This document shows, piece after piece, positions 1,903 to 13,131 of a DNA stretch of 13,898 nt. The stretch's first letter is position 1. Each line of letters opens with the position of its first letter. The notes under the pieces were generated by a model. That model made no database searches. It saw only the letters and a program-made list of their open reading frames with translations, and was not told where the DNA came from. A program made the translations under genes and the position numbers. This DNA is from a virus (Duplodnaviria > Heunggongvirae > Uroviricota > Caudoviricetes), in the IMG/VR virus record IMGVR_UViG_3300025299_000102. One strand, given 5' to 3'.

Positions 1903-3594
1903 ATGTCGAATAACTGCATTCTCTCGAGGCGCCCGGTTGATACTGACCGGGCCCTTCTTTTGCAAAAAGCCACACCAGGTCTTACGGACCTCGAAGCTCA
2001 GGTGCTGGCTTCCCGCGGTGCCGAACTGTCCAATCACACGCTGCCCAGTCTTCTAGGTATCTACCTGACAGACATCGAGCGCGGTGCACTTCGCCTCCAA
2101 CAAGCCATTCTCAAACAAGAGCAAATCGTTGTCATTGCCGACTACGATTGCGACGGTGCTACTTCCTGCGCTGTAGCAGTGTCTGGACTGCGGGCTTTGG
2201 GTGGAAATGTGGGCTATGTTGTTCCGGACCGGATGGTTCACGGTTACGGCATCTCTCCTTCGGTAGTCGACCTGGCGCGCGAACGATTCCCAGCCGCCCG
2301 GGTACTGATGACGGTTGACAATGGAATCCTGGGCCACTCCGGCATTACGTATGCTGCACGGCTGGGCCTTGACGTAGTCGTCACCGACCATCACCTTCCA
2401 GGGGAAGATATCCCACTTGACGCAGTCGCAGTAATTGACCCCTCCCGGGACGACGACATCAGTGGGCTGACCAAATTGGCGGGCGTGGGTGTGGCTCTGT
2501 GGCTAGTGGTGGCCACGAAAAAGATGCTTGCGCAAGTCGGACGAGAAACGCCCCAGCTGAACTTCCTGCTGCCCTATGTCGCAATTGGAACGGTGGCCGA
2601 TATGGTGCCGCTGGACGTTATTAACCGCATCCTGGTGTCGGTAGGTCTAGACCGTATGCGGACAGGGCAAACGCCTGTTGGTGTGGAGGCGCTCATCAAA
2701 GAGTCGGGTGCGATTTCTTCTTACCTAACGACACAAGACATCGGCTTTGCCATCGCGCCCCGTATCAACGCAGCTGGGCGCCTGGATACGATGGACGCCG
2801 GCATTGACTTGCTGCTGGCCACGGACCCGAAAGAAGCCCGTCGGCTCGCGCGCCTGCTCACCCAAACGAACGAAGCACGCAAGCAGCTTCAGCGGGAGGC
2901 CACTGACGACGTATCAGCAATGATGGATTTTTCGTTCGACGAGAATATGCGTGCTATTGTCCGTGGCAGCGCAGACTGGCATCCGGGCATTGTAGGCCTG
3001 GTGGCATCTCGCTTGAAGGATAACTTCCACCGACCAAGTTTTGTGTTCTCGCTGACCGACGGCTACGCAAAGGGCTCAGGCCGCTCTATCCCTGGATTCC
3101 ACTTGAAGGATGCACTTGAAGAAGTCGCGCGCCGCTGCCCCGGCGTCTTAGCTAAATTTGGAGGCCACGCAATGGCCGCTGGTGCGACCTTGACGAGTCC
3201 AGAGGCGCTAGCCAAATTTGAGGCGGCCTTCTCGGAGGTCGCGCGGGAACGCATCACCCCAGTTATGCTTGATAGCGTACTTTACAGTGACGGCCCCATG
3301 CCCGCGCTCACTTTACAGCCAGCTGCGAAGCTGATGCGCCATCCATGGGGACAAGGCTTTGAGGCACCAGCGTTTGACGACGATGCCGTCATTGAAACAC
3401 TCAAGCCCCTCGGAAAAGACGGTAAGCACTGGCGCATTGAGGCACGTGTCGGCAGCCGGGCCAAAACCACCGTGGTACTGTTCAATCAGCCGGAACCTGT
3501 GGTTGGCCAGGAAGTCCACCTGTATCTGCAGCCGGGCCTCAACCCATGGAGGGGGCAGACTAACCTCCAGTGGTTAGGTCGCGTCCTCCAGTAG
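1903..3594 (+). CDS. recJ: Single-stranded-DNA-specific 5'-3' exonuclease RecJ (DHH/DHHA1)
   Basis: Ordered RecJ motifs DYDCDG, PDRxxHGYG, TVDNG, TDHH, LAGVGV, GTVAD, PRINAAGR, GSGRS, GGHAMAAG; 563 aa is full length. Confidence 0.96.
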   Translation: MSNNCILSRRPVDTDRALLLQKATPGLTDLEAQVLASRGAELSNHTLPSLLGIYLTDIERGALRLQQAILKQEQIVVIADYDCDGATSCAVAVSGLRALGGNVGYVVPDRMVHGYGISPSVVDLARERFPAARVLMTVDNGILGHSGITYAARLGLDVVVTDHHLPGEDIPLDAVAVIDPSRDDDISGLTKLAGVGVALWLVVATKKMLAQVGRETPQLNFLLPYVAIGTVADMVPLDVINRILVSVGLDRMRTGQTPVGVEALIKESGAISSYLTTQDIGFAIAPRINAAGRLDTMDAGIDLLLATDPKEARRLARLLTQTNEARKQLQREATDDVSAMMDFSFDENMRAIVRGSADWHPGIVGLVASRLKDNFHRPSFVFSLTDGYAKGSGRSIPGFHLKDALEEVARRCPGVLAKFGGHAMAAGATLTSPEALAKFEAAFSEVARERITPVMLDSVLYSDGPMPALTLQPAAKLMRHPWGQGFEAPAFDDDAVIETLKPLGKDGKHWRIEARVGSRAKTTVVLFNQPEPVVGQEVHLYLQPGLNPWRGQTNLQWLGRVLQ

Positions 3595-4530: not shown

Positions 4531-4608
4531 GTAGTACTACCGAGATTAGAATGATTACTATGATTAGGGCGTGTATATCCACACGAAATTTGACTTGATT
4601 AGTAGTAG
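4531..4608. other. AT-rich part of putative oriV (unwinding element) with DnaA-box-like site
   Basis: Palindrome GTAGTACTAC (4531-4540). GATTA(G/C) recurs with a 9-bp period at 4544, 4553 and 4562, and again at 4597. ATATCCACA (4575-4583) is one mismatch from TTATCCACA. Adjacent to the iterons. Confidence 0.55.
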
Positions 4609-4626
4609 ATTTTCACGTCGCAACCA

Positions 4627-4714
4627 GCTAAATACTACGGCCGGCCAGCTCCAATACGATGACCGGCAGGTTCCAATACGATAACCGGCAGGCTCCAATA
4701 CGATGGACGGCAAG
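4627..4714 (+). repeat. 22-bp iterons (3 good copies + 1 degenerate), putative Rep binding sites
   Basis: CTCCAATACGATGACCGGCAGG (4649), TTCCAATACGATAACCGGCAGG (4671), CTCCAATACGATGGACGGCAAG (4693), and degenerate GCTAAATACTACGGCCGGCCAG (4627). Head-to-tail with a period of about two helical turns, upstream of rep. Confidence 0.85.
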
Positions 4715-4792
4715 TTGCGCTTCAGGTTGCGGGCTCGGTGTGACTTAGCCGCCAATTGGCGCCGTCGTCGAAGGACTTGCCGTCCATCGTAA

Positions 4793-4842
4793 TTGCGGAT
4801 ATACAGTTTACATGGTATACTAAGCACTTCAAATCTGAAGTG
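4793..4842 (+). promoter_or_regulatory. Promoter of RHH-rep operon with downstream operator-like inverted repeat
   Basis: TTGCGG (4793-4798), 17-nt spacer ending in TGG, TATACT (4816-4821); CACTTC-AAATCT-GAAGTG (4825-4842). Confidence 0.7.
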
Positions 4843-4848
4843 TCCGCC

Positions 4849-5040
4849 ATGAGCAAGAATACAGACCGTCACAAGCCGCACTCGCGTCAATACAATCAAC
4901 GCGTCCCTACCGTGCTAATCGAGGCATTCACGGCCGCCTGTCGTAGTCGGAACCTGAAGCCTGCCATCGTCACGCGAAATCTGATGCAGGGCTTCGTCGA
5001 CCTGGTGGCGGAAGCCGATGCAGGGGTGTCTCAGTCATGA
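4849..5040 (+). CDS. Small ribbon-helix-helix (CopG/Arc-like) repressor, 63 aa
   Basis: QYNQRVP (strand), TVLIEAFTAACRSRN (helix A), PAIVTRNLMQGFV (helix B). ATG 4849 is preferred over the track start 4756 because the promoter lies between them. The stop overlaps the rep start (ATGA). Confidence 0.7.
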   Translation: MSKNTDRHKPHSRQYNQRVPTVLIEAFTAACRSRNLKPAIVTRNLMQGFVDLVAEADAGVSQS

Positions 5041-6098
5041 GCGAGCAATTGGCACTCGACCTGGTCGTCCAATCCCGTGCGGTGGCCCGTGCCGCCCTGA
5101 ATGCATCAGGCCCTCAGCAGGAGATGCTCGACGCTGGCAGCAAGTCTCTAGCCCTGGCTGCCCGCCGCGCCGCGGCGCGTTCCCGGGCGGATGAGCATGC
5201 AATTTTGGAACTTGAGGCTACTGCAACGCCGGCGGCAGTCAATGCCGCCCGCACACGACGTGCGGTGCGCCGCGGTCGGGATGTGTACCTCCCGTGCTGG
5301 TCCGACATTGCCGTCGGCCTGCCAAACGCCTTACTGCGGTCCCAGCTATGGGCGGCCGGGGAGGGCGCGGACACCTGGATGGAAAGCGCGGAAATTGCGA
5401 CGCTGGGCCAGGATACGCGTATTCTCTACTCCGGCCGCCAGCTTACTCAATACGACCGCCGTGTCTTTGCTGCCTGCCTGGATTACTACAAAGAAGGCCG
5501 TCCATTGTCCGACGGCGCCAACTCGGCGTGGGTTTGCGTGTCCTTCTACCAGTTTGCGCAGTCGATGGGCCTGGCTTACACCCTCAACACCCACAAGGCC
5601 ATGCGCGCGAGTCTGATTCGCCTGGAGGCTGCGGCACTCCGCATCGGAACCGGGCATCTGGAGCTGCCGGTGCCACGTCTGCTCGAAGTTGCCTTCGACG
5701 ACGGTTACCACGGCCTGCCGGACAATGAGCTGAAAGGTAGCGACCAGATTGCCTTCCGCGTGCTAGAGCAGTTTGCAGCCCTTTACGGACCTACCACGTG
5801 GACGGCGGTGCCCAAGCCAGCACTTGAGCTCCGCGGCATCCGAGCGTGGCTTGCGGGCTTCTATGCGACCCACAGAGGCCCTCGTGAGCTGCCGTTCAGT
5901 AAGCTGCAAACCTTGAGCGGCATGACCTGTCGGCCAAATGACTTCCGTGCGTGTGTAGTGCGCGCGTTGGACGAACTGTCGCGGCCCGAAACAGACTCGG
6001 AAATTCGAGTGAAGTGTTACCAGGTGAGCGCCGACCGCAAATCGATTTCTGTAATGCTATCGCGCTGGGACCGAGGAACAGCACCTGACCCGCAATAG
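5037..6098 (+). CDS. Plasmid replication initiator, TrfA family
   Basis: YLPCW...GLPNALLRSQLW...ILYSGRQLTQYDRRVF resembles the TrfA-family pattern LPxW...PNxxxRSALF...YxGxxLxQxDxxV; iterons upstream; translationally coupled to the RHH gene. Confidence 0.85.
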   Translation: MSEQLALDLVVQSRAVARAALNASGPQQEMLDAGSKSLALAARRAAARSRADEHAILELEATATPAAVNAARTRRAVRRGRDVYLPCWSDIAVGLPNALLRSQLWAAGEGADTWMESAEIATLGQDTRILYSGRQLTQYDRRVFAACLDYYKEGRPLSDGANSAWVCVSFYQFAQSMGLAYTLNTHKAMRASLIRLEAAALRIGTGHLELPVPRLLEVAFDDGYHGLPDNELKGSDQIAFRVLEQFAALYGPTTWTAVPKPALELRGIRAWLAGFYATHRGPRELPFSKLQTLSGMTCRPNDFRACVVRALDELSRPETDSEIRVKCYQVSADRKSISVMLSRWDRGTAPDPQ

Positions 6099-7510: not shown

Positions 7511-7540
7511 ATTTTATGGCATTTCTCTATATACTGTCAA
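7511..7540 (-). promoter_or_regulatory. sigma70 promoter of 7161..7430
   Basis: Minus strand TTGACA (7540-7535), 18-nt spacer, TAAAAT (7516-7511). Confidence 0.65.
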
Positions 7541-7568
7541 GAAAAACCGACCTGGTCAACAGGTCGGT
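7541..7568 (-). terminator. Terminator of the kinase gene
   Basis: Minus strand ACCGACCTG-TTGAC-CAGGTCGGT then TTTTC, 4 nt after the kinase stop. Confidence 0.8.
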
Positions 7569-7572
7569 GAGT

Positions 7573-8190
7573 TTAGCTATAGCCAAGGCTGCTGGAGGCA
7601 ATCACATCGTTCAAGACCAATTCATCAGAACCGCGAACCATTAAGTTCGCCCGATGGAAGTCTAAAGACAGGTTGCCGTAGTCCATGGACAGGGTCTGGA
7701 GCTTTTCGAATGCCTCCTTCAAAGACTCCGGAAACCAGGGAGTATCTACCAGCTGCTTAAGCGCGGTCAGCGAACGTTTTGCTTGCCGGTCAGCAGGTGC
7801 GCCAGGGCTGCGCCAAACGCTCATTGCATCCTTTGACAATAAGCAATCTTGCACCGTATCAATTACACGTTTTGCCAGCTTTCGAGTCGGGGCGTCTGCT
7901 TTGCTTGTAGGCTTCAGGCGTTCTGCTTGAAACAAGTACAAGTCTGCGTTGCCTGCGTCTTGAATGCCGACACGCCCGATGATTTTCATCAACCGCGGAA
8001 AGTGCACGCCGTCCAGATAGAACTGGACCGACTCCAGCTGGATGTAATCAGCGGTGAGCTTTAGGACTGCGTCCTCACCGTCATCGTACACTGCGCAGTA
8101 AGTGCCGCGGCCGATACGCTTCTTCCCCACTAAGCCGTGTGCCCGGAGCGCCCTACGCGTGCCAAAGTCGTTAAGTTTCAAAAATGACAT
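7573..8190 (-). CDS. Minimal protein-kinase-like (PKL) fold protein, T7 gp0.7-kinase-like
   Basis: Gly-rich loop IGRGTYCAVY (G27/G29), beta3 VLK44L, catalytic loop LD177FHRAN182LM (DxxxxN) and metal-binding LND195V; SD GAGGG; own terminator. Confidence 0.8.
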   Translation of the reverse strand: MSFLKLNDFGTRRALRAHGLVGKKRIGRGTYCAVYDDGEDAVLKLTADYIQLESVQFYLDGVHFPRLMKIIGRVGIQDAGNADLYLFQAERLKPTSKADAPTRKLAKRVIDTVQDCLLSKDAMSVWRSPGAPADRQAKRSLTALKQLVDTPWFPESLKEAFEKLQTLSMDYGNLSLDFHRANLMVRGSDELVLNDVIASSSLGYS

Positions 8191-8287
8191 GATATTCCCT
8201 CAAAATGATATATACACACCTGGGTATAGCGCTGTCGCTTCGCTAGAACTTGAACTAGGTATGGGGAATTCGCAGGTCATTAACACC

Positions 8288-8303
8288 TTTTCATGGTATA
8301 CTA
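8288..8303 (+). promoter_or_regulatory. Extended -10 promoter element for the 538-aa gene
   Basis: TTTTCATGGTATACTA (TGn + TATACT at 8297-8302), 38 nt upstream of ATG 8341; no canonical -35 seen. Confidence 0.5.
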
Positions 8304-8340
8304 TCGAATATACATATCTTGATAGAAGAGAACAAACGTT

Positions 8341-9957
8341 ATGAAGTCTTCAGACGCCGAGTTGTATCAACACGCGCGCACTGCAGCTAACCAGCACGGG
8401 GCCTCATTTATCGGCCCGGCCGACGCCTACAAATACGGCATGTTTCAGTTAGCCGATGGTCGAACCATCGAACTCCACCTCTACCACGTTCGAGATGGTA
8501 AGTGGCCGAAGGACGTCGACAAATTCCTGGAGCGCCAGGAGATTGGCCGTGGTCGAAGCCAAGAGAAAATGCTGACCCGGCTGAAAGCCCTTGCCCAGGA
8601 CGGTGAGGCAACGCTGCTCGACCAGAGCTGGGCTGGGCCACACGCCTGGTATTCGTTTGAGCTGGCCGATGGCCGTATTGTTAAGATTCGAGGGAGCAAG
8701 CTCGTGACATCCGGCTGGCCGAAAGACATCGATGCTTACCTGGAGTGGAGTGCAGCCCGGCGCCAGGAGCACGCTGAGCCTAAAGGTAAGTCCCAGCTTT
8801 TTGATGAGTTCCGCGCAATCGTGGAATCGAACAATGCCGTCGTGCTCTCGCCAGAATGGCTTGGCGCCCGCATCCCCCACGAAGTGCTGCTAAGCGACGG
8901 CACCATTCGTAGGCTCAAGCCAAATCAGTTAAAGTACTTCGGATGGCCAGCGGTACCCTTCGACGAGCTGCGCAAAATGGCTGCCCCTTATCCCGTCCAT
9001 ATCCTGCCTGACACCGCAGATAAGGAAACGCAGGTGTTTCGCATTTCCGTGAGTGGCGGCGTGTACCTTGAAGGCCCATTTGCCGACCTGAAGGCACTAT
9101 GGGCCGAAGGTGCGCCTGCAGTTATCTCAGATACTTGTGTCTGGGCGGAGCTGAATGGAATGAAAATGGTTCCGGCCAAGTGGCAAGGTATTCTGGCCGA
9201 GTATGAGTTCACAACGCCCGACGGGCCGTCTGTTTGGCGCAAGGTTCCTGCGGCCGACGCGCATGAGCAGCAGCGACAGAATGATGCAGAAGTAGCCAAG
9301 CTGCGCCGGGTTGGGACGTTGAATGGCGCGAAGCTACTGGCACAACCCTTTGCCGGCAAAGACGCCGTGTATGCCTGGGAGAAGGATGGCCAAGTGATTA
9401 TGGCCACCACCCAGGAGCTCATCGAACGCTCCCGCCAGCATGCATTTTTCAACACATTGAAGGGGCGCGTAAAAGAACTGGGCTTGGTGGCAGACTTGGT
9501 GTCCACTGAATGGGAAGGTATGTGCTCCGCCTACCAGTGGCGCCTGGCCGATGGTAGCGAAATCACAGCCAAGCTGTCTCAGCTTCGTACACTCGCTCGT
9601 GAAAAGGGCTTGGAGGCCGCTGCAGCGACGAAGGTTGCTCGCGCACGCACTGATGAGGCACGCGTACTCGATGCTGGTGCAGGTGACCAATCGCTGGCCG
9701 TGTTGCGCAGCTGGGGCGACGAATTTGGCATCAAGCTGCTTAGCACCGACTGGGTTGACGCCAGCGCGAACTATGAATGGGCACTGCCTGATGGGACAAT
9801 CGTGGCGGCGTCACTTAAGAAGGTCCGCAATTGCACCCGAGCAGTTCTTCGGCAGCGGGGGTACTCTGGATTTGATATGCCAGGTGATGTCGCATCCGTT
9901 ATTCGCGAAGATTGCCACCGGCTTCGCGACCGCATTTCCACTAGTAAATCACGGTGA
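8341..9957 (+). CDS. Repeat protein with about 8 helix + beta-hairpin modules (cysteine-free zinc-ribbon-like), putative DNA-binding
   Basis: Recurrent L-x(6-8)-G-x-x-LL-S-x-x-W-x-G-x4-Y-x-F/W-x-L-x-DG with DG/GG turns at aa 39, 110, 186, 239, 294, 349, 404 and 484. No catalytic domain recognised. Confidence 0.75.
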   Translation: MKSSDAELYQHARTAANQHGASFIGPADAYKYGMFQLADGRTIELHLYHVRDGKWPKDVDKFLERQEIGRGRSQEKMLTRLKALAQDGEATLLDQSWAGPHAWYSFELADGRIVKIRGSKLVTSGWPKDIDAYLEWSAARRQEHAEPKGKSQLFDEFRAIVESNNAVVLSPEWLGARIPHEVLLSDGTIRRLKPNQLKYFGWPAVPFDELRKMAAPYPVHILPDTADKETQVFRISVSGGVYLEGPFADLKALWAEGAPAVISDTCVWAELNGMKMVPAKWQGILAEYEFTTPDGPSVWRKVPAADAHEQQRQNDAEVAKLRRVGTLNGAKLLAQPFAGKDAVYAWEKDGQVIMATTQELIERSRQHAFFNTLKGRVKELGLVADLVSTEWEGMCSAYQWRLADGSEITAKLSQLRTLAREKGLEAAAATKVARARTDEARVLDAGAGDQSLAVLRSWGDEFGIKLLSTDWVDASANYEWALPDGTIVAASLKKVRNCTRAVLRQRGYSGFDMPGDVASVIREDCHRLRDRISTSKSR

Positions 9958-10013: not shown

Positions 10014-10442
10014 ATGATGCGCATTCCTTTTTCTGTCGGGTTGCTGGAACTTCATGACCAGCAAAAAAGTCGTTGGGTATTGATAAAGAATGAGGCTTCG
10101 GCCTCGGGCCAAGAGCACTGGTCCTTTCCAGGCTTTACTCAGGGGCCAGGTGCCGAACTCAAATTCGCTGCCGACCTGCATCTCTCGGAGAACGGCTGTC
10201 CCGTACGTTTGCCCCAGCCTGCGGACCTCTCCGCATTTGCGGGCATTCCGATTACTCGAGCACGCGTTACCAATTCTTCGCAAGTACAGCTCGATGGACC
10301 AGAAACGACAAAATGCCGACCAATCCTGCTGGCCGGCATCGCTGACATCGAACAACTTATTGCTAGCGGTGCGCTATGTACTGCGAGCGTCGAGCTCTGG
10401 TTGGATTACTGGAGCGCCGTGGCGCACAGTGATTATCGCTAG
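10014..10442 (+). CDS. Nudix-fold-like protein with degenerate Nudix box
   Basis: VLIKN...WSFPG then a 23-residue span ending E-N-G-C with Nudix-box spacing; C-terminal IEQLIASGAL resembles ADP-ribose pyrophosphatase tails. Start ATG 10014/10017 (GGAG SD); GTG 9954 (GTGA overlap) is the alternative. Confidence 0.55.
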   Translation: MMRIPFSVGLLELHDQQKSRWVLIKNEASASGQEHWSFPGFTQGPGAELKFAADLHLSENGCPVRLPQPADLSAFAGIPITRARVTNSSQVQLDGPETTKCRPILLAGIADIEQLIASGALCTASVELWLDYWSAVAHSDYR

Positions 10443-10962: not shown

Positions 10963-11700
10963 TCACTCTGAAATCGCGCCCTGAGGGAGGAATTTCATCC
11001 CCGTTTGGCGCACTAGTTCCGCATAGCTCACCGTACCAGTGAGTTTTGCCTCATCATTGTTGTCGACGACGTAGGCCCAGGCCTGCTTCTTGGCAGGGTC
11101 GTATACCAACTTGAACATGGACGTTGGAACCCAGACCTTGTTTGCGCCCACGGTCGCCACCTGGCCACGATAAATCGGACCGGTCAGCACGTAAACTTCA
11201 TTGCCGCGCTCGACATACTTGCGGGTGGCTTTTTCCACCGCCTTGGCCCATACGCCGCGATTATGCTTTGGAGCCTCCGGAACCATGTTGGCCAAACTGA
11301 AGCTCTGCGCCATTGCTTCCGGCGTGGTGCGCTGAGCTGCTGCAGCGAGATGACCGCGGTCGTAGTTGCTGCCGTGATAGTCGGCCAGACTCGAGCGTTC
11401 GGCCGAAGGTAGGCGAGCCTCTTCGTAGAACCGGTCGGTACGCTGCTCGCCGCGTGCATCCGCAAGGCTGCGCGGAGTCAGGTGCTCCGCGGCGTAGATG
11501 GCGGTTTTGGATTGTCCAGAGTGCAGCACCGCAAAATCGTCGAAACACACGGCACGCAGCTGCCCTGGTTGCGCAGAAGTAGCTTGCGGAGCAAAGCCCT
11601 GGTAGAAGTTCTGGGAGCAGGCTTCAAAGCCTTTGGTACCGCTTGCAGCTGCTGGCAGGCAAACTGCTGCCAGCGCGATAATCGAAGTAACACGAAACAC
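10963..11700 (-). CDS. Secreted DNA/RNA non-specific endonuclease (Serratia NucA/EndoG-like, DRGH family)
   Basis: YDRGHL, RTDRF, QSFSLANMVPE and HNRGVW...E motifs. Signal peptide from GTG 11700 (MFRVTSIIALAAVCLPAAA). The track start 11751 overlaps an extended -10 element. Confidence 0.93.
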   Translation of the reverse strand: MFRVTSIIALAAVCLPAAASGTKGFEACSQNFYQGFAPQATSAQPGQLRAVCFDDFAVLHSGQSKTAIYAAEHLTPRSLADARGEQRTDRFYEEARLPSAERSSLADYHGSNYDRGHLAAAAQRTTPEAMAQSFSLANMVPEAPKHNRGVWAKAVEKATRKYVERGNEVYVLTGPIYRGQVATVGANKVWVPTSMFKLVYDPAKKQAWAYVVDNNDEAKLTGTVSYAELVRQTGMKFLPQGAISE

Positions 11701-11741
11701 TAGGCGACTCTTAGGTAGGTGAGGAACGGAAATGATAGCGC

Positions 11742-11750
11742 AGTATAGCA
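11742..11750 (-). promoter_or_regulatory. Extended -10 element (TGC-TATACT) for the nuclease gene
   Basis: Minus strand TGCTATACT about 40 nt upstream of GTG 11700, just downstream of a terminator. Confidence 0.5.
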
Positions 11751-11781
11751 TAGAATTGCCTTACTTGCATTGCGGCAAGAT

Positions 11782-12636: not shown

Positions 12637-13131
12637 TTAAATTTGCAGTGCTAGAGGCAGATATTCGTGCGGTTCGCCATTTTCCTGACGGCCAGGTATC
12701 TCGATAACCCTCCGCAGCGCGGCGCCGGCCAGCTGTACGACATGGTGATTTGCGTGATGAGCATCAGCGTAGCGGGGGAAGTCGCAACCGGTCAAGGCAT
12801 GCGCTACCAAGGCAGCAGCCGCACTGCGACTGCGACCCATTCGGCAATGCGCAACCAGGCGATATTTCTGAGTCGAGTAGTGATACGCGCGCACAAACGC
12901 GATAAGCTGCTCCAGCTGGACTGGAGAGCACATGACTTCTGCGGGAAATCCGTACTCTTCCAGCTCATGGGGCTCAATATCGAGGAACTCTAACCGGAGA
13001 TATGCCGCGAACTTGACCAGATTAGCCGGCGGCAGCTGGGCTAAGTCGCCAATGGACATGGCAATCATATCCTGCGCCGGCACCAGGTTCTGGAACGTAT
13101 CCAGGCAAACGAAGTCAACCGCCGAAATCAC
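12637..13131 (-). CDS. Cys-based protein tyrosine/dual-specificity phosphatase-like protein
   Basis: P-loop VAHC96RMGRSR102S (HCX5RS) and upstream LRLEFLD51I (candidate general acid); small stand-alone size. Confidence 0.88.
   Translation of the reverse strand: MISAVDFVCLDTFQNLVPAQDMIAMSIGDLAQLPPANLVKFAAYLRLEFLDIEPHELEEYGFPAEVMCSPVQLEQLIAFVRAYHYSTQKYRLVAHCRMGRSRSAAAALVAHALTGCDFPRYADAHHANHHVVQLAGAALRRVIEIPGRQENGEPHEYLPLALQI

Follow-up and report, generated by a model that had tools for sequence, protein, structure and literature searches.

Results

The kinase gene and its expression signals

The window, i.e. the entire 13,898-nucleotide stretch of DNA analysed here, originates from a 571,756-bp metagenome contig and contains a short minus-strand gene whose product carries the sequence motifs of a kinase. 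This gene is flanked by the following features:

7536-7568, minus strand: intrinsic terminator just past the kinase stop codon (9-bp stem with 6 G-C pairs, 5-nt loop, T-run; terminator scan)
7573-8190, minus strand: kinase coding sequence, 205 aa (translation, conservation, AF2 model and hhalign comparison with T7K, the gp0.7 kinase of phage T7)
8191-8340: divergent control region of 150 bp, common to the kinase gene and the gene of a 538-aa repeat protein (conserved blocks aligned with the related loci L006 and L007)
8196-8201, minus strand: Shine-Dalgarno sequence GAGGGA, 5 nt before the ATG (read from the sequence)
8223-8230, minus strand: promoter-like -10 box GCTATACC, a weak version of a recurring box, 32 nt ahead of the kinase start codon
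8294-8302: extended -10 box TGGTATACT of the 538-aa repeat-protein gene (box position)
8341-9957, plus strand: gene of the 538-aa internally repetitive protein, divergent from the kinase gene (63% identical in relatives)

The translation of the kinase gene contains, in this order, all catalytic elements that an earlier note on this DNA had listed, comprising a Gly loop (G27-R-G29-T-Y-C-A-V34-Y), the ATP-anchoring Lys of strand beta3 (K44 in V42-L-K44), an H63-F-P-R-L motif, a catalytic loop with the sequence D177-F-H-R-A-N182 and the Mg-binding, DFG-equivalent Asp (D195 in N194-D195-V). As described there, the protein ends 10 residues past D195, at residue 205. Its close homologues (n = 19, 47-53% identity), some of which are labelled Burkholderia ubonensis, B. 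multivorans or Paraburkholderia, all retain M1, G27, G29, K44, D177, N182, N194 and D195. These invariant residues, together with the 267 clusters of related sequences described below, indicate that the reading frame is not a chance ORF, confirming that the mini-kinase gene is real.

In line with its previous description as a monocistronic gene with its own Shine-Dalgarno sequence and terminator, the kinase gene is preceded by GAGGGA, whose GAGG core is kept in an alignment of Burkholderia-type relatives, and followed by the terminator at 7536-7568, directly past which the next gene possesses a separate sigma-70-like promoter (11/12 match). Based on these three elements, it forms its own transcription unit. 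The -10 box upstream of it belongs to a GSTATACY pattern that occurs five times in the window (at 4814, 8223, 8295, 9978 and 11742), compared with 0.55 expected copies, a number reached in none of 200 shuffles, and all five copies face a downstream gene. Three of them constitute extended -10 sites (TGnTATACT), and the weaker GCTATACC form stands before the kinase gene and before a gene encoding 142 aa. Neither the TG nor the final T is present in the copy upstream of the kinase gene, which therefore resembles a promoter of weak or conditional activity and suggests that the kinase is expressed at a low level or conditionally. Relatives retain the block CGCTATAC in the alignment of the 8191-8340 region. 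The box positions also imply that the true start of the 9954 ORF is the ATG near 10014 and that the start of the Endonuclease_NS gene lies downstream of 11742.

A family of stand-alone mini-kinases

We searched 1.84 billion representatives exhaustively with HMMER (E<=1e-3) and obtained 267 clusters at 50% identity. Without any limit on length, 145 of the 150 best hits measured 160-239 aa, with typical lengths of about 190-220 aa, and only four of these 150 exceeded 260 aa, three of them being giant multi-kinase proteins. Given this near-uniformity at about 200 aa, the short form represents the family norm rather than a truncation, in agreement with the earlier designation of the protein as stand-alone. 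The giant proteins P0130, P0141 and P0166 (1,325-2,317 aa) each contain four to six stretches matching the mini-kinase profile as well as Pfam APH/ABC1-like segments, accompanied in P0141 and P0166 by a cytidylyltransferase domain, and can be described as multi-kinase 'polyvalent' proteins.

The window kinase matches PHROG 3809, a family annotated as 'unknown function', over residues 17-203 (E 2.5e-14), as do all of the 146 representatives sampled. Judged by these profile matches, PHROG 3809, whose members are labelled hypothetical in public sources, is the actual sequence family of the window kinase. Cluster look-ups aimed at named or chromosomal family members yielded unnamed metagenomic sequences. 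The sampled representatives share only 22-47% identity with the window kinase, and L92, D177, N182 and D195 are invariant in their alignment; G29 is kept in 143, K44 in 137 and V34 in 131 of the 146 sequences. Family-wide conservation does not extend to E53, the equivalent of the alphaC Glu. At the DFG-equivalent position, 95 of the 146 members show D-P-[VIL], and Val takes the place of the Pro in 37. In the clade of the window kinase, the motif reads D-V-I, starting with D195 in the window kinase itself.

Generic kinase profiles hardly recognised these proteins. A scan of the 146 members with a Pfam profile set lacking PF27024 gave one match to APH (E 0.089), two to ABC1 and one to Kinase-PolyVal (E 0.067), all at E>0.04, and none to Pkinase. 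The window kinase itself matched neither Pkinase nor APH (PF01636).

Relationship to the gp0.7 kinase of phage T7

At the family level, the mini-kinases are clearly homologous to T7K by sequence. When the 146 family sequences and the T7K kinase domain, each represented by an alignment, were compared using hhalign, the probability was 96.8% (E 2.3e-10) over 141 columns that begin at the Gly loop and end at the DFG-equivalent motif; significance was obtained only with this broad alignment, whereas the 19 close sequences compared with the single T7K sequence yielded 21 columns at a probability of 3%. Moreover, 105 of the 146 members matched phrog_15752, which represents T7 0.7-type kinases (best E 4.9e-13), and 13 matched phrog_2828, the PHROG that holds T7K. 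Foldseek searches of viral models likewise retrieved many 'protein kinase' entries from Autographiviridae (E 1e-4 to 3e-6), with certain unnamed phage proteins, such as one of Acinetobacter phage Presley (TM 0.64), ranking closer. The nearest clusters in the ESM Atlas are predominantly viral (72-94%), and PF27024 occurs in some of them. Together, the hhalign, PHROG and Foldseek results uphold the previous classification of the protein as T7 gp0.7-like, and the T7 motifs that had been quoted for this comparison (LGNGHFSAAY, VIKV, IPNVY, FDMHSGNIM and ITDP) all agree with the T7 record.

Taken by itself, the window kinase is a distant relative. It matched phrog_15752 over 29 residues (169-197; E 5e-4), gave no match to phrog_2828 at E<=1 and bears no precomputed Pfam domain, falling below the threshold of PF27024 (Phage_T7_kinase), to which one family member shows a weak precomputed match. 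The search for T7K homologues in the recent study of this kinase used the PHROG 2828 HMM at E<1e-10 (Bartolec et al., Nature 2026, PMC13645617). Since the window kinase misses this threshold and a tblastn search of 50,697 phage records returned nothing for it, it belongs to a more remote clade. Searches of these records with P0060 and with the Acinetobacter homologue also returned nothing.

Predicted fold

The window protein is predicted with high confidence to adopt a bilobal kinase fold. In the AF2 model, based on the alignment of 19 sequences (pLDDT 93.3, pTM 0.86), an N-lobe of five strands and one helix is followed by four helices (residues 100-171), the strands of the catalytic and Mg loops and a short last helix, such that the kinase fold ends just past the DFG-equivalent Asp. 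The earlier note had stated that the protein lacks the substrate-selecting C-lobe of Hanks-type kinases. This view holds for everything after the DFG-equivalent Asp, as the model and the PDB alignments show no activation segment, P+1 loop or helices alphaF-alphaI, but it does not apply to the C-lobe as a whole, of which the four helices and the catalytic and Mg loops remain.

According to the earlier note, best structural matches to small-molecule kinases would have spoken against its reading; this outcome did not occur. Instead, VIA-align, a Foldseek-independent comparison with 48,161 PDB chains, identified protein kinases or pseudokinases in 47 of the 50 top chains (Z 5.3-6.8), and alignments with solved kinases began at the kinase N-terminus and ended just beyond the DFG motif (residues 1-155 in CDK2), covering 115-140 residues with an rmsd of 3.5-4.5 A and Z-scores of 6-8 (8.1 for PKR); Z-scores of 5-8 are modest and, according to the tool's own note, can arise from a common arrangement, so that the fold evidence alone is insufficient to settle the family. 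Sequence searches of the PDB chains with the window kinase and the 19-sequence profile gave chance matches only. The minimal effector kinases OspG/NleH and HopBF1 were absent among the PDB matches listed, which is not evidence against a similarity to these proteins.

The carrier element and the distribution of the family

Outside the kinase locus, the window contains the following features:

1903-3594, plus strand: full-length RecJ of the element (TIGR00644, E 3e-120, above cut-off)
4540-6098: plasmid-type replicon module, composed of an AT-rich stretch, iteron-like repeats, a -10 box, a small ORF and a TrfA-like initiator
4629-4716: four tandem 22-bp iteron-like repeats
4813-4821: extended -10 box of the replicon module
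about 4849-5040: small ORF, overlapping the start of the TrfA-like gene
5037-6098: TrfA-like initiator, 353 aa, about 1.5 kb from the kinase gene
10963-11751, minus strand: secreted-looking non-specific DNA/RNA endonuclease (Endonuclease_NS, E 3e-44)
12637-13131, minus strand: CX5R phosphatase-like ORF, 164 aa, with the motif HCRMGRSRS (Pfam DSPc, E 0.0035; PHROG 5614, E 1.5e-6)

The 353-aa protein resembles annotated TrfA replication initiators of 135 plasmids, with a best E of 2e-13 and about 28% identity across 65% of its length, and gave no match to any phage. These TrfA matches, combined with the iteron-type anatomy of the presumed origin, support the proposal that the kinase gene resides on a plasmid backbone; thus, all three parts of the earlier headline (stand-alone, T7 gp0.7-like and plasmid backbone) are supported. 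Seventeen contigs encode an identical kinase protein, and 11 belong to the 0.2-1 Mb class. Relatives of the element are present in Burkholderia and Paraburkholderia assemblies, on contigs reaching 578-720 kb, and several contigs in the range of about 570-720 kb are part of isolate assemblies. A megablast search of plasmids with the whole window found nothing, and the profile of the 19 close homologues detected no related loci among genome contigs and viral contigs. No specific description of a 600-kb Burkholderia phage-plasmid family emerged from a literature search.

When compared with its Burkholderia-type relatives, the window shows 80-82% identity for RecJ and the TrfA-like protein and 52% for the kinase, identifying the latter as a fast-evolving accessory gene. 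The CX5R phosphatase-like ORF, located 4.4 kb from the kinase gene, is kept in these relatives at 50% identity; the gene caller applied to the source contig had placed opposite-strand ORFs at this locus instead. The divergently encoded 538-aa repeat protein has no match in Pfam, PHROG, NCBIfam or PADLOC, and its pairing with the kinase was seen only within this element family. PADLOC also gave no match for the kinase or nine of its neighbours. In the Burkholderia-type relatives, a gene of 443-455 aa (He_PIG / Laminin_G_3) lies directly downstream of the kinase gene (10685-12052 in L006-L008; 10721-12052 in L007), at a position where the window has only the terminator, giving the appearance of a variable insertion spot.

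A survey of homologue neighbourhoods, as proposed in the earlier note, revealed two further settings. Using tblastn, we detected a homologue (31% identity over 97% of the length) on 145 plasmids of Acinetobacter, which range in size from about 68 to 155 kb (about 110 kb in most cases); there, it is annotated as a 258-aa protein, about 50 aa longer than the window kinase. These carriers fit the AB group of phage-plasmids (PMC7969092), and one of them encodes a terminase. More distant family members are found, on contigs no longer than 108 kb, among small unnamed genes that are densely packed on the same strand, an arrangement typical of the early or accessory regions of phages. No gene besides that of the kinase is common to the window, the Acinetobacter plasmids and these distant contexts. 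In particular, no CX5R ORF was present within 8-10 kb of the kinase gene in five unrelated contexts, and PHROG 5614 had no match on ZW85p2, an Acinetobacter phage-plasmid carrying a kinase homologue. Several phage-like loci (L012 and L015, as well as L011 and L001) share the order RNA ligase, RNase_T exonuclease, several small genes, kinase and, further along, RadC, and an RNase_T or 3'-5' exonuclease gene is likewise found upstream of the kinase gene on the Acinetobacter phage-plasmid.

Discussion

We favour the view, to which we assign a probability of roughly 0.55, that the product of this accessory gene of a TrfA/iteron element of about 572 kb is a stand-alone, catalytically competent protein kinase, which belongs to the T7K superfamily and acts in a T7K-like manner. 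The kinase activity, protein substrates, promiscuity and anti-defence role that this view entails are properties we infer by homology with T7K, which disarms several defence systems via pervasive phosphorylation (PMC13645617). In such a scenario, a kinase reduced to the N-lobe, a small helical remnant of the C-lobe, the catalytic loop and the Mg-binding Asp would lack a groove for selecting peptides and could thus phosphorylate Ser/Thr, and possibly Tyr, residues of many host proteins. Little sequence preference is indeed to be expected from a protein without activation segment or peptide groove, as reported for T7K. Broad phosphorylation might then help the element to establish itself or to fend off host defences and competing elements. 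Counted against this interpretation are the weak matches of the window kinase itself (phrog_15752 at E 5e-4 only, no phrog_2828 and no precomputed Pfam match), the replacement of the DPV Pro by Val, the Ala at the position aligned with T7K Ser216 and the modest structural Z-scores.

An additional concern is that the element looks stably resident, a lifestyle for which an unrestrained promiscuous kinase would be costly, and this consideration favours a regulated or more specific role. Restraint could possibly be provided by the weak promoter box or by the CX5R phosphatase-like gene. Along these lines, the protein may be a regulatory kinase of narrow specificity that modifies one or a few proteins of the element or host and thereby acts as a reversible switch, possibly opposed by the phosphatase-like protein. 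A tamed activity would be plausible for an element with TrfA, iterons and large contigs in isolate assemblies, and both the weak variant of the promoter box and the conservation of the HCRMGRSRS-containing ORF 4.4 kb away in Burkholderia-type relatives are consistent with it. Nevertheless, we consider this alternative unlikely, because the protein has no activation segment or docking surface to confer specificity, the five unrelated contexts contain no CX5R ORF within 8-10 kb, the Acinetobacter phage-plasmid has no PHROG 5614 match, and the kinase gene is the only gene that these contexts have in common. Quite improbable, in our opinion, is a role as a toxic effector that mediates abortive infection or excludes competing phages or plasmids, which would make the gene a defence rather than an anti-defence determinant. 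Defence genes are often carried by resident elements, and the kinase is a rapidly diverging, independent accessory gene in a variable block, whose relatives show the 443-455-aa insertion after the kinase. However, neither it nor its neighbours were recognised by PADLOC, an adjacent sensor or antitoxin partner is absent, the closest characterised relatives work for the invader, and distant family members are found in phage arrays of small unnamed genes.

There is also a slight chance that the protein phosphorylates small molecules or nucleic acids, similar to APH, choline kinase or ArkI, instead of proteins. Foldseek searches of the PDB placed APH(2'') and maltokinase among the CDKs with E-values around 1e-3, but the solved APH enzymes superimposed with an rmsd of 14-17 A, compared with 8-11 A for protein kinases. 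In the VIA-align ranking, the tRNA kinase TkArkI appeared at rank 9 (Z 6.1), and APH accounted for only one of the 50 top rows (rank 29, Z 5.6). Some look-alike clusters are automatically named 'aminoglycoside phosphotransferase', and the distant multi-domain proteins P0130, P0141 and P0166 carry Pfam APH; in the family at large, a single member out of 146 matched this profile, as opposed to 105 that matched the T7-type kinase PHROG. In addition, the H-x-D signature of the APH/ChoK catalytic loop is absent, the corresponding residues being S175-L-D177. Even less credible is an inactive pseudokinase that serves as a scaffold or decoy: despite the loss of the DPV proline and the poor conservation of E53, 146 representatives that are only 22-47% identical to the window kinase keep all catalytic residues with no or almost no variation.

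Returning to a T7K-like protein kinase as the preferred reading, it is tempting to speculate, although we would give this idea little credence at present, that the clade (at least 267 clusters) comprises a 'domesticated' form of T7K adapted to resident elements, i.e. to phage-plasmids and plasmid-like replicons of half a megabase. In the giant elements of the Burkholderia type, it might act with the CX5R phosphatase as a writer/eraser pair that keeps the host phosphoproteome, including its defence proteins, in an element-tolerant state during long-term carriage, as opposed to the brief burst of T7.

The window kinase shares its predicted fold and the catalytic residues of the Gly loop, the DFG motif and the region between them with Hanks-type kinases such as CDK2, PKR and PknB, but it lacks the HRD histidine, the catalytic-loop Lys, the activation segment, the APE motif and helices alphaF-alphaI. 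Unlike the Kinase-PolyVal domain (PF18762), which belongs to the polyvalent proteins of phages and conjugative elements, it stands alone rather than being embedded in a multidomain protein. The similarities to T7K are more specific. Both kinase domains show the same order of motifs, stop shortly past the DFG-equivalent Asp and are encoded on mobile elements. Moreover, the family and T7K have two derived features in common: the catalytic loop of the family (D-[FLM]-H-x-x-N-[FLI]-M) parallels the DMHSGNIM sequence of T7K, and the 'DPV' motif described as distinctive for T7K homologues (PMC13645617) equals the D-P-[VIL] motif of the 95 family members that possess it. The proline of this motif has been proposed as the basis of T7K hyperactivity (PMC13645617), and it is in this position that the window kinase (D-V-I) departs from T7K (D-P-V). 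The conserved autoinhibitory residue Ser216 of T7K, located just past its DPV motif, aligns with A198 of the window kinase, which is followed by S199-S201, and this position is occupied by A, C, F or V across the family. Also absent from the window kinase are the N-terminal extension of T7K, roughly 60 residues long, and any counterpart of its DNA-binding shut-off (SO) domain (residues 243-359), which gives T7K a bias for nucleic-acid-binding substrates. Without such a domain, the window kinase would not be expected to share the bias of T7K toward nucleic-acid-bound substrates, and its targets should differ from those most modified by T7K. Finally, the carriers differ, T7K being an early-region gene product of a lytic podophage with a 40-kb genome and the window kinase belonging to a TrfA-type element about 572 kb in size.

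T7K homologues have been reported almost exclusively from Autographiviridae, with a few additional examples in jumbophages and prophages (PMC13645617). The SO-less homologues of the jumbophages Munch and G17 and of prophages are, like the window kinase, kinase-only proteins of large elements, and their function and promiscuity were left open (PMC13645617), but they reach the PHROG 2828 threshold of E<1e-10, which the window kinase does not. Given that kinase-only relatives of T7K on large phages have already been published, the gene described here is an incremental extension rather than a surprise. It reveals a more remote, widespread kinase-only clade, missed by the criteria of that study (PMC13645617), which is found on phage-plasmids and on a giant TrfA-type element. 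If the window kinase proved to be active and promiscuous, phosphorylation-based anti-defence would extend from lytic phages to plasmid-like residents, and two hypotheses on T7K could be tested with a naturally occurring protein, namely that the DPV proline drives its hyperactivity and that the DNA-binding domain sets its substrate bias.
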